Shown here: positions 42,529 through 51,296 of the stretch, piece by piece | Layout of the letters: the number at the start of each line of letters is the position of its first letter | Numbering within the stretch: position 1 is the first letter of the stretch | IMG/VR virus record: IMGVR_UViG_3300025009_000017 | DNA length: 55,350 nt | Strand: one strand, 5' to 3' | From: a virus | Made by a program: the position numbers and the translations under genes | The notes under the pieces: model-generated | Databases searched by the model: none | Seen by the model: only the letters and a program-made list of their open reading frames with translations | Told to the model about the DNA's origin: nothing

Positions 42529-42734
42529 GGCTTGGCTCCTTTCGGTTTCGGACCAAATGAAGTTGCCTTCTTGTAAAGCCTCTTTGCTTCCTTGGGCTTC
42601 ATCTCCGTAAGGGTGAAGAAATAGTTCTGATCGAACCGCTGGTTGTCGTAGTCGGTGACGACGCATCCGTTCTCAACCGGTGAATCTGTCGCCACGTCCA
42701 CCACCACACCACCGCGGACTGTGATGTGGATCAT
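42525..42734 (-). CDS. Hypothetical protein (69 aa)
   Basis: ATGA overlaps at both ends. Confidence 0.55.
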   Translation of the reverse strand: MIHITVRGGVVVDVATDSPVENGCVVTDYDNQRFDQNYFFTLTEMKPKEAKRLYKKATSFGPKPKGAKP

Positions 42735-43018
42735 GGCTTCACCTCCTGTTCCTGGAGAGCCTTGTGCCACTTCTCCCAGTTGGCCTTGTCGTTGGCGTAT
42801 TGGCGTTCAAACCTCGCCTTCTCTTTTCCATTCGATGTTCCGGTCCCGTTGCAGATGGAGCATCTCTGATCTACATATCCAGTCCCGTCGCAGTGCGGGC
42901 ACTCCACTTCCTCTTTGCCTTTGCCATCGCACGCCTCACACGGAAGTGATTCGTCCGGGAAGCTGGCCTTCCACTGCTCGTAGGTGAGGAACTTTGGAGT
43001 TGGTTTCTCCTCCGGCAT
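42731..43018 (-). CDS. DnaJ-type CxxCxGxG zinc-finger protein (95 aa)
   Basis: Contains CEACDGKG, CPHCDGTG and CSICNGTG. AAAGGAGAACT precedes the ATG. Confidence 0.6.
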   Translation of the reverse strand: MPEEKPTPKFLTYEQWKASFPDESLPCEACDGKGKEEVECPHCDGTGYVDQRCSICNGTGTSNGKEKARFERQYANDKANWEKWHKALQEQEVKP

Positions 43019-43032
43019 AGTTCTCCTTTATG

Positions 43033-43521
43033 TTAATTATTGTTAGCTCGTTCTTTACACGCTTTCACATAGATTTCATGTGCATCTTTTTCTGTTGCAA
43101 AATATCCGAGAAAGATTTTTTTGTCATTAATAGTAATTGATGCTTCATACTTTTCCCTGTGTTTATTGAAGCAACTTCCAACAAGTTTTCCCTTTTGATT
43201 AATACCATGAATAAAGCGATTTTGATTGTTTTTTCTATGGGTTACAATTCGTAAATTAGTTATATTATCATTGAGTCTGTTTAAATCTATATGATCTATT
43301 TCAAACCCATCTGGAATATCTTTTTTGTTGCATATTACCCAAACAAGCCGAGCATAACGATAGTTTCTCCCATTCCACCCAACTCTACAATAACCATCGC
43401 TGTGAGCTTTATGCTTAATAATCCTCCAGCCACTTCTCTTAAAATGTCTTTCCAATTTACCATTAGTATTAAGTCTAAACATCTTTTCTGCTTCTTTAAA
43501 ATCAATTGTTAAAGTATTCAT
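43033..43521 (-). CDS. HNH (HNH_3-type) homing-endonuclease-like protein (162 aa)
   Basis: FEIDHIDLNRLNDNITNLRIVTHRKN. The N-terminal FRLNTNGKLERHF parallels 50967..51296. The gene is markedly AT-rich. ATG follows AAAGGAGTTCC. Confidence 0.75.
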   Translation of the reverse strand: MNTLTIDFKEAEKMFRLNTNGKLERHFKRSGWRIIKHKAHSDGYCRVGWNGRNYRYARLVWVICNKKDIPDGFEIDHIDLNRLNDNITNLRIVTHRKNNQNRFIHGINQKGKLVGSCFNKHREKYEASITINDKKIFLGYFATEKDAHEIYVKACKERANNN

Positions 43522-43534
43522 GGAACTCCTTTCT

Positions 43535-44144
43535 TTTATTTTTGGGAAGCCTGTCATCATCAGCACGGAGTGGCGCTCCGTGTACCGGGGGGACGTGAGC
43601 CGGCGGCCTATCGCCGGTGAACAGATGCTTTCGGCATTCCAGGGAATACATCACTCAGTGTCTGGTAGTCAGGCAGTGCTTTTCCGCTCGTCAGCGTAAT
43701 CGTGCAAAGCCATGACATCCCGAGTTTTTGTGAAGTTCCCTCGAATTCTCCAGCTGCGTCCTGTGGACGAGGACCCGTCCTGGGTACTGCATTCACCACC
43801 TTACGTTCTGGAAAGGCTGTCCTTTGGAAACGGCCCAAACGGGCTCCGGCAGACTTATTGACTCGCAACGCCATCGTCGCTGCTGCCGTCCCTATGTGGC
43901 CTAAATGCTCCGAGCATGAACGCCCGGGCGATGTACCCGGATCTGTTGATTTCAACCGGAGCGGAACCCCGCATTTGGGGCAGACTCCCTCTCTTCGCAT
44001 ATTCAGCCTGCATTGTGTTCCTAAGTCACGTCCTATGGTCGCTGGTTAATGCTGTAAACTGTCACAGCGCACAGTGACCATTCTACCAGTTCGCCAGCAC
44101 CACAGGGTGCCGTGAACCAGTTCACCCGGTTTCGACTAAACTGT
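43535..44144 (-). ncRNA. Candidate large structured non-coding RNA or other non-coding element (about 600 nt), class unknown
   Basis: The only long stretch without a credible ORF. The two track ORFs here lack an SD and are Arg/Pro/Gly-rich. It is dense in hairpins, e.g. CACGGAG-CGCCA-CUCCGUG, CCGGCG-AUAGGC-CGCCGG, AUGC-CGAAA-GCAU and GUGAAC-UG-GUUCAC. GC content matches the genome backbone, unlike the adjacent HNH gene. Confidence 0.35.
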
Positions 44145-44348
44145 TTACTTTATCTTGGGCCAGATCCTTTCACCCGCCTGCATCATGTAGGTGGCCTCCG
44201 GTGGGACCGGCATATCGTAGGCTTTCCTGCACTTTGCCTTCTTCTTACAGCCTTCCACCACGCAGGGTTTCCCGTTAAATCCGCAGGTGCGTTTGACTGT
44301 CCCGCTGTTGTGGGTTATCAGGATCTCCCACCCGCAGTTCAGCGCCAT
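44145..44348 (-). CDS. Cys-rich small protein (67 aa)
   Basis: Lies within the minus-strand gene train. Confidence 0.55.
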   Translation of the reverse strand: MALNCGWEILITHNSGTVKRTCGFNGKPCVVEGCKKKAKCRKAYDMPVPPEATYMMQAGERIWPKIK

Positions 44349-44351
44349 GTC

Positions 44352-45107
44352 TCACCTCTCGATCTGGCGCACCGCCGTGGGTTTCTTTTCTTCTTCCTCG
44401 CCGGACTCCATCCAGGCGATCAGGTCCCGGCCGGTCTGCTCGGAGATGATCTCCACCTTCTTGTCGAACAGATCGATCCTGGTCTTGCTTGCCACCGCCT
44501 TGTGGGTGGTGTGGTCCACGTCGTAGACCAGGGTGAACTCGTACTCGATGCCTTCCCGCTGGATGGGGGCCAGGCCGACCTTCTTGATGTTCCACTTGCC
44601 GTCCGAGTCCTTTTCGTTCACCCAGTCCTGCTTGGACCGCAGCGTAACGATCATGTTCATCTTGCTGGCCAGGATGGTGTCCACCAGCTCGTTGTGCTTG
44701 GGGGTTACCTCCCGCCAGGCCCGGAAGCCGTTCTTCTGCTTCAGCTCTTCCATGCTGTGCATATCCAGGATGCCTCCGGCCCCGGACCAGGCATGGGAGA
44801 AGCTGTCGATGATCAGGTTGTCGTAGCCGGCAGCCTCGGCCTCCTTGATGGCCGCTATGTAGCGGTCGGCGCTGTAGGGCGCTCCCAGCGAGAAGCTGTC
44901 GAACTTGACCAGGTGTGAATACAGCGGCAGGGATCCGTGCTCGGTGTCGATGGCCGCTATGCTCCCGCCCAGCCCCTTGGCCAGCAGCAGCGATGAGTAG
45001 CTCTTGCCGGAACCTGATGGTCCGGCGATGCAGATGCGGAGCTTGCTCTTTCTCCGCACCGCCCTGGTGAACTGGATCGGTTCCGCCGCTTGTCCTATTG
45101 GGGTCAT
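44352..45107 (-). CDS. Sak4-like / AAA_24 family recombination ATPase (251 aa)
   Basis: Walker A AGPSGSGKS, IDTEHG, and LIIDSFSHAW (Walker B region), with a C-terminal pattern typical of phage RecA-like AAA_24 proteins. Confidence 0.65.
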   Translation of the reverse strand: MTPIGQAAEPIQFTRAVRRKSKLRICIAGPSGSGKSYSSLLLAKGLGGSIAAIDTEHGSLPLYSHLVKFDSFSLGAPYSADRYIAAIKEAEAAGYDNLIIDSFSHAWSGAGGILDMHSMEELKQKNGFRAWREVTPKHNELVDTILASKMNMIVTLRSKQDWVNEKDSDGKWNIKKVGLAPIQREGIEYEFTLVYDVDHTTHKAVASKTRIDLFDKKVEIISEQTGRDLIAWMESGEEEEKKPTAVRQIER

Positions 45108-50569: not shown

Positions 50570-50938
50570 TTAGTCTTCGACGTTGATGGTTAATTCCAGG
50601 CCCTCGTCTACCCCATCCTGGTAGACGCCCTCGTAGATCTCGAACCCCTGCCGGCGGGCCTCCACCTTGGCCTTCTCCATGCCGTAGTGGGCCGTGAATT
50701 TGTTCAGCTCCTCCTGCGCTCCCCACCGGCCGTTGAAGTTGTCGTAGGTGATGGTCCCGTCCTCCTTGACGCAGACCGGGTAGTTCCACCCGGGAAGGGT
50801 GATCTTGGTGCCGTGCTCGGTGGTGGAGAACTGCTTGAAGGTGACATCCTCCTCGATGGGCAGACCGAGCTTCCGGCAGACCGCCTGTATGACGGCCTTA
50901 TCCTTCAGCTTCAAGTCCAGCACAACTGTGTGCGACAC
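50570..50938 (-). CDS. DUF1257 (Ycf35-like) protein (122 aa)
   Basis: GTG start follows AAAGGAGGAACAGTA. SHTVVLDLKLKDKAVIQAVCRKLGL ... DGTITYDNFNGRWG ... RRQGFEI matches the DUF1257 pattern as I recall it. Confidence 0.5.
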   Translation of the reverse strand: MSHTVVLDLKLKDKAVIQAVCRKLGLPIEEDVTFKQFSTTEHGTKITLPGWNYPVCVKEDGTITYDNFNGRWGAQEELNKFTAHYGMEKAKVEARRQGFEIYEGVYQDGVDEGLELTINVED

Positions 50939-50966
50939 TACTGTTCCTCCTTTTTTAATATGTTTT

Positions 50967-51296
50967 TTATTTTTGAAGATTCTCACGATTAGTCACAACC
51001 TTAAGATTTTGGAGAGAATTGTTCATTTTATTTCCATCATTATGATCTATCTTCAAATCGGCTGAAAGTTCTTCTCCGTGCTGAAGAACCCACAGAATAC
51101 GATGGTATGGATACATTGATCCATTCCATTTAACACCAAGATAGTTTCCTCTTTTACTACCCTTAACTTCTCTCCAGTAAGGTTTTTTTAACAAGCCTCC
51201 ACCATGATGCACAACACGATAACGTTCTATGGTACCATTCTCGTTTAATCTGAAAACTTTCTTAAGTTCCTGTAAATCAATTGGCTTTGCTCTCAT
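50967..51296 (-). CDS. Small HNH (HNH_3-type) endonuclease (109 aa)
   Basis: LKIDHNDGNKMNNSLQNLKVVTNREN. AT-rich. Its N-terminus is paralogous to 43033..43521. Confidence 0.7.
   Translation of the reverse strand: MRAKPIDLQELKKVFRLNENGTIERYRVVHHGGGLLKKPYWREVKGSKRGNYLGVKWNGSMYPYHRILWVLQHGEELSADLKIDHNDGNKMNNSLQNLKVVTNRENLQK

Follow-up and report, generated by a model that had tools for sequence, protein, structure and literature searches.

Candidate split type II hammerhead ribozyme framing a large non-coding RNA in a phage replication operon

Positions 43549-44136 on the minus strand of the window (the whole stretch of DNA analyzed, 55,350 nt) likely encode a 588 nt non-coding RNA within the early replication/recombination operon of the phage, the ends of which, judged from their sequence, would come together as a discontinuous type II hammerhead ribozyme. 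In alignments of four lineages, each end of the element carries a sharply conserved block, which reads UAGUCGAAA(A/C)NGGGG for the 5' block and CCCCNGU-H-hairpin-CUGA(U/C)GA-(U)-GACAG(G/A)C for the 3' block. Every sequence-level feature of a hammerhead that could be tested was found, and the gathering score of the type II hammerhead model RF02276 was not reached, such that membership in the hammerhead class is predicted with this reservation. The initial annotation had described the stretch as a candidate large structured RNA or intron-like element; the first part of this description stands, with the class now being an RNA bracketed by a predicted type II hammerhead, and the intron-like part does not.

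A gene-free gap conserved in four phage lineages

The phage genome is recorded as complete in IMG/VR (55,235 bp, with terminal repeats) and is nearly clonal across groundwater and soil metagenomes from eight studies. Contigs from four DNA runs all were identical, with no variants and no joints, and none of the runs in which the sequence was identified is an RNA run. The element is found in a replication/recombination module, in the sense direction within an operon, and the genes around it all are on the minus strand:

44352-45107, minus: AAA_24/Sak4-like ATPase gene, upstream of the 67-aa gene
44145-44348, minus: 67-aa Cys-rich protein gene, the upstream neighbor, conserved in L010, L011 and L013
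43033-43521, minus: HNH homing-endonuclease gene (Pfam HNH_3 and phrog_99), across the gap from the 67-aa gene
42731-43018, minus: 95-aa zinc-finger protein gene, the downstream neighbor

A gap of 623 nt (43522-44144) separates the 67-aa gene, with its stop at 44145, from the HNH start codon, an ATG at 43521; it contains just two ORFs, 43608-44000 on the minus strand and 43702-44049 on the plus strand. Neither ORF had a Pfam or PHROG match, and no conserved reading frame was found among the four homologous elements, in line with the initial annotation, which had seen no credible ORF here. Its remark that the GC content resembles the backbone and not the HNH gene also is borne out by the values, 0.52-0.585 for the gap compared to 0.27-0.36 for the HNH gene, and the flanking ORFs, which it had taken to be independent genes, indeed are complete, separate and conserved in relatives. 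No promoter or terminator matches were found on the strand of the element.

Relatives were identified by a search with the AAA_24 protein and inspection of the encoding contigs, which yielded three diverged lineages with a gene-free gap in the same place:

L010: AAA_24 identity 89%, gap of 535 nt
L011/L012: AAA_24 identity 85%, gap kept
L013: AAA_24 identity 75%, gap of 610 nt

In all three relatives, the homologue of the 95-aa gene begins ~30 nt past the conserved 3' end of the gap. Lineages in which AAA_24 is at most 65% identical (L015, L016, L045 and L048, and also L002-L006) have ordinary genes, without the gap or the motif. Searches with the neighboring 67-aa and 95-aa proteins gave no extra lineages, returning the same four along with further contigs identical in the RNA, and no match to the gap was obtained by blastn among 50,697 phage records. 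Scans with a pattern of the 3' domain detected only unrelated compact hammerheads and chance matches in viral contigs, 18 chance matches in GC-rich coding DNA in metagenome contigs and 18 chance matches in genome contigs. The collections searched thus hold four distinct sequences of the element, all from related lineages, hence the small counts reported below.

The predicted ribozyme at the ends of the element

The strands are in the order of a type II hammerhead, with stem II open and stems I and III closed, stem III by a domain of 456-535 nt. From 5' to 3' in the RNA, the predicted parts are:

44136-44125, minus: 5' half, GUC-GAAA-ACCGGG
44134-44136, minus: stem II 3' strand GUC, pairing with GAC at 43553-43555, invariant in four of four lineages and paired by RNAalifold
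44131-44133, minus: core G12 A13 A14, invariant in four of four lineages
44125-44130, minus: stem III 5' strand (A15.1 CCGGG), pairing with 43584-43589
43590-44124, minus: 535-nt insert replacing loop III
43589-43549, minus: 3' half, CCCGGU-A, stem I hairpin, CUGAUGA-U-GAC-A-GGC
43584-43589, minus: stem III 3' strand (CCCGG U16.1)
43583, minus: H17, here A; the cut is predicted on its 3' side (43583/43582)
43564-43582, minus: stem I hairpin CACGGAG-CGCCA-CUCCGUG, with no pair broken in relatives
43572-43574, minus: loop I bases GCC, the pseudoknot partner
43557-43563, minus: core CUGAUGA (C3-A9), invariant except for N7
43556, minus: extra U between A9 and G10.1, found in three of four lineages
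43553-43555, minus: stem II 5' strand GAC
43552, minus: A between the stem II strand and the tail
43549-43551, minus: 3' tail GGC, pairing with the loop I GCC in what would be the type II pseudoknot

Across the four lineages, stem I is 7-8 bp, stem II 3 bp and stem III 6-8 bp. The cleavage triplet is GUA in the phage and L011, and UUC in L010 and L013; GUA is a natural hammerhead cleavage triplet (PMC1636495). For the extra U after A9, the (+) hammerhead of CChMVd provides a precedent compatible with catalysis, given that it has an extra A10 and that an A10U change sped the reaction 3-4 fold (PMC3705267). The pseudoknot is 3-4 bp (4 bp in L011), below the at least 4 bp that is typical, and shortening a 6-bp type II pseudoknot cut the rate 20 to >100-fold (PMC3088659).

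Since MAFFT placed L011 (in one alignment) and mini-hammerhead constructs out of the structural register, base pairs were counted in that register by script. All 64 pair cells were Watson-Crick for the 6 pairs of stem III, the 7 pairs of stem I and the 3 pairs of the pseudoknot in the four lineages. Covariation in homologous regions, which the initial annotation had suggested as a check, was evident as compensatory double changes in 8 of these 16 pairs, including 5/7 in stem I and 2/6 in stem III, where C-G/A-U and C-G/U-A changes were found in relatives. The pseudoknot, GGC/GCC in three lineages, is GAC/GUC in L010, again a compensatory change. When the partners were permuted, only one of the 24 assignments, the true one, kept all pairs. 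Stem II is uninformative in this respect because its 3 bp never vary among the four lineages. RNAalifold, run on the plain MAFFT alignment, independently returned stems I, II and III.

We also scanned both strands of the 55-kb window with a descriptor for compact or split type II hammerheads and obtained a single match, compared to a chance expectation of 0.025 per dinucleotide-shuffled window. The descriptor also matched the homologous site in L010, L011 and L013, and none of nine more distant loci without the gap. Stem III is closed in the minimum free energy fold of each of the four elements, and when the insert was swapped in silico for a tetraloop, the sequence folded into a three-way junction. 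The initial annotation had found the gap to be dense in hairpins, and we recovered each hairpin on its list in the RNA of the minus strand; one of these, CACGGAG-CGCCA-CUCCGUG, is stem I, and another, CCGGCG-AUAGGC-CGCCGG, is a conserved hairpin by stem III. Relative to dinucleotide shuffles, the folding energy of the phage element corresponds to z = -3.2 and -3.5 in two runs, and the values for the relatives are -0.6 (L010), -3.3 and -2.6, so that three of the four elements fold better than shuffles.

Rfam model RF02276 gave no match to the element at the gathering threshold or at E <= 10. This is expected because the model cannot span an insert of ~500 nt, and the miss is a measure of the layout, not of the core. 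The sole Rfam match within the element, to a C/D-box RNA on CUGAUGAUGA, was judged to be due to chance. Separately, hairpins of the form CCGCCC(T)CAC at 48-49 kb are small stem-loops unrelated to the element.

An alternative is that the element is a large structured RNA in which the hammerhead-like ends act as a closing helix or junction, for example for protein binding or stability, and no cutting takes place. The short pseudoknot and the 3 bp of stem II would be in keeping with such a role, as would the probability of stem III in a nearest-neighbor model with 80-nt coding flanks, which is 0.97 for the phage and low in the three relatives (0.22, 0.01 and 0.1). However, the core nucleotides are invariant in all four lineages with the exception of N7 (U, or C in L013, which has CUGACGA), the single free core position. 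The GAAA is invariant, H17 is A or C and never G, and the A15.1-U16.1 pair is kept in all four lineages amid pairs that covary. This pattern fits the needs of catalysis and not those of a closing helix, and we consider closure without cutting to be unlikely compared with a self-cleaving hammerhead.

The insert and the neighboring HNH gene

The insert that would take the place of loop III differs in length among the four lineages (535, 456, 530 and 527 nt) and is made up, from 5' to 3', of a variable 5' arm (101-161 nt), a central domain, a variable 3' arm (151-192 nt) and a conserved 3' hairpin region. For neither arm did consensus folding recover a structure common to the lineages. Two parts of the insert are conserved as structures:

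43815-44008, minus: central domain, ~190 nt (98 nt in L010)
43600-43617, minus: hairpin CCGGCG-AUAGGC-CGCCGG just inside stem III, present in four of four lineages, one G-C pair being replaced by A-U in L011, a compensatory change

The central domain is closed by a helix of GGCUG (44004-44008) with CAGCC (43815-43819), which covaries among the lineages (GGCUG/CAGCC, GACUG/CAGUC, AGCUG/CAGCU and AGUUG/CAGCU). Within the domain are the purine motif GAAGAGAGG and the hairpin CCCC-AAAUGC-GGGG, the stem of which also covaries (CCCC/GGGG versus CCUC/GAGG). The conserved islands of the domain are a GAAGAGAGG-like motif, AGUCUUUAUG, GAGUCAAUAAGUCUG and UUUUACAGCAGC. A conserved GCCGA motif accompanies the CCGG hairpin beside stem III. 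Four sequences are too few to derive a fold for the full insert.

We noted two places at which alternative pairings could form. At 43813-44008, and in the corresponding domain of L010, L011 and L013, two similar pyrimidine motifs, AGUCUUUAUG and GUCUUUUACAG, are alternative partners for the purine motif (of the GAAAAGA or GAAAGGAC type). There are compensatory changes for both options in L010, which raises the possibility of a two-state switch. In keeping with the needs of such a switch, each of two similar pyrimidine motifs in the central domain, GUCUUUAUG and GUCUUUUACAG, could pair with the one purine motif. In addition, the 3' arm of the CCGG hairpin could pair with the 3' strand of stem III in the phage and L011 (GCCGG or GCUGG with CCGGU or CCAGU). 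This pairing would compete with the active fold and is impossible in L010 and L013.

A non-coding stretch of stable length in diverged lineages of a tightly packed genome argues for selection. The insert probably is either a stable RNA with its own function or a module that controls the cut through its folding. More specifically, and only tentatively, it could represent a large phage RNA of a class not yet described, functioning in its own right, for which the hammerhead would make the 3' end or serve as the switched output. If so, a case in which the switch is folding, a ligand or a protein would be a natural allosteric hammerhead.

The variable arms could instead suggest that the insert is a spacer or the remnant of a decayed gene, without function at the RNA level and located inside a hammerhead by chance: they are nearly unalignable among the relatives and lack a consensus fold, and overall column identity is only ~59%. 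Such a remnant is difficult to reconcile with the retention of 456-535 nt between tightly packed genes in lineages for which synonymous sites should be saturated, with the conserved islands and covarying helices of the central domain and the 3' hairpin, with the better-than-shuffled folding of three of the four elements, or with the lack of a conserved frame or family match. We regard a spacer or remnant as quite unlikely, leaving a functional insert as the preferred reading.

The initial annotation had offered an origin, a pac site or a decayed gene as alternatives, and none of these is favored by the data. A DNA-level element would suit the location in a replication/recombination module. The stretch nonetheless contains no iterons or direct-repeat arrays, just short two-copy matches, has the GC content of the backbone instead of being AT-rich, and is conserved according to RNA pairing rules on one strand, making a replication origin or pac site very unlikely.

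The idea of a self-splicing group I or group II intron carrying the HNH gene, or of a HEARO/OMEGA-type RNA associated with it, which is suggested by the size of the element and the HNH gene directly downstream, is hardly plausible given that the flanking ORFs are complete, separate genes in all four lineages, that relatives have the RNA without the HNH gene, that the next gene follows the HNH stop after only 14 nt, and that Rfam searches of the window, the gap and the relatives at E <= 10 found none of the classes named in the initial annotation (group I, group II, ROOL, GOLLD, HEARO, tmRNA and RNase P).

The link to the HNH gene drawn in the initial annotation also does not hold. The HNH gene is absent from the locus in all three relatives (L010, L011 and L013), which keep the RNA in the same place. 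We therefore infer that this AT-rich gene entered the A-rich spacer past the ribozyme at a later time and is outside the RNA element. The gene map is corrected accordingly, with the HNH gene as a mobile insertion apart from the RNA. A second HNH-like sequence is found at ~50916-51287 (G000:C1:3970-4341) and is 36% identical to the HNH gene at 43033-43521. There are two in-frame TAA stops in the matched range, and this paralogue may be shorter or decayed. The presence of a paralogue elsewhere in the genome would fit a mobile free-standing endonuclease.

Predicted consequences of cleavage and comparison with known RNAs

We propose that the whole element is transcribed within the operon and that folding of the insert would allow stem III to close and the core to form, whereupon the RNA would self-cut 3' of A43583. 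The upstream mRNA, with the AAA_24 and 67-aa genes, then would end in the large folded domain and a 2',3'-cyclic phosphate. The downstream mRNA would start with a 5'-OH and the stem I hairpin, followed by a leader of ~30 nt and the ribosome-binding site of the next gene, which would be the HNH gene in this phage and the zinc-finger gene in the relatives. Cutting thus would divide the polycistronic transcript in two, each half with a protected end of its own. Both types of ends, a folded 3' end with a cyclic phosphate and a 5'-OH with a hairpin, slow RNA decay in bacteria. Strong folding of a 600-nt untranslated stretch also would be expected to limit Rho loading. No RtcB or RNA-ligase families were found in the phage, and the idea of cutting and ligation, or of a circular RNA, thus is without support.

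The stop codon of the 67-aa gene sits 9 nt ahead of the first ribozyme strand (44137-44147). In L010, the upstream stop UAG overlaps the ribozyme strand, forming UAGUC (L010:5975-5990). With the stop this close to, or in L010 within, the first strand, terminating ribosomes speculatively could disturb folding, and termination of translation and ribozyme folding may be coupled.

The hallmark of type II hammerheads is a pseudoknot of loop I with the nucleotides right after stem II; their stem II often is just two base pairs, and they are sited between prophage genes (Perreault et al., 2011; PMC3088659). The phage element resembles these RNAs (RF02276) in having the full core, an open stem II of 2-3 bp, looped stems I and III, a loop I pseudoknot after stem II, an A-rich tail and an intergenic site in a phage operon. 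It differs from them in that a conserved, folded domain of 456-535 nt takes the place of loop III and sets the halves ~550 nt apart, that three of the four lineages have the extra U after A9, that the pseudoknot is limited to 3-4 bp, and that RF02276 is blind to it.

A discontinuous hammerhead has been described for the Clec2 3' UTR (Martick et al., 2008), a type III ribozyme with an insertion of 150-1500 nt in helix I (PMC6155905, PMC6765202). The mammalian Clec2 RNA is the only discontinuous hammerhead cited in these two reviews, both of which treat the purpose of bacterial and phage hammerheads as a question that still is open. The two systems share halves that are hundreds of nucleotides apart within an mRNA and must meet for cutting to occur. 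Clec2 is type III, split in helix I and in a eukaryotic 3' UTR, whereas the phage element would be type II, split in helix III and in a phage operon. Compared to Clec2, the phage insert also has conserved islands and covarying helices. What is new here would be the split type II layout and possibly a new large RNA inside.

The element is similar to the ROOL, GOLLD and HEARO RNAs in being ~500-800 nt, non-coding, phage-borne and of unknown function, though neither it nor its relatives match any of their Rfam models at E <= 10. To our knowledge, none of these classes is framed by a self-cleaving ribozyme. In engineered insulators of the RiboJ type, a hammerhead removes upstream RNA and leaves a 5' hairpin, standardizing the leader of the next gene. 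The likeness to RiboJ, which is synthetic and compact, is in the proposed effect only. The phage RNA would be a tractable case, in that a large domain should have to fold for cutting to occur. Since model-based searches miss split forms, the census of hammerheads likely is incomplete.

Compact hammerheads also were encountered. In L010, a second candidate of the type II form is present in the same operon (L010:1562-1621), in an intergenic position after a DUF2997 gene, and reads ACC-GAAA-CCCCGGG..CCCGGGG-UU, predicted cut, UUCCAG..CUGGAA-CUGAUGA-GGU. It scored 27.1 bits (E = 0.1) with RF02276, for which the gathering score of 37 was not reached, and its counterpart is absent from the 55-kb window. 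An unrelated IMG/VR contig, L017 (also L023), contains two identical RF02276 hammerheads (45.4 bits, 689-756 and 1523-1590). These are 834 nt apart, each just before a start codon, and have a single gene between them, as Perreault et al. reported for prophages (PMC3088659). The L017 hammerheads share the layout GUC-GAAA ... CUGAUGA-GAC-AGG with the split element.
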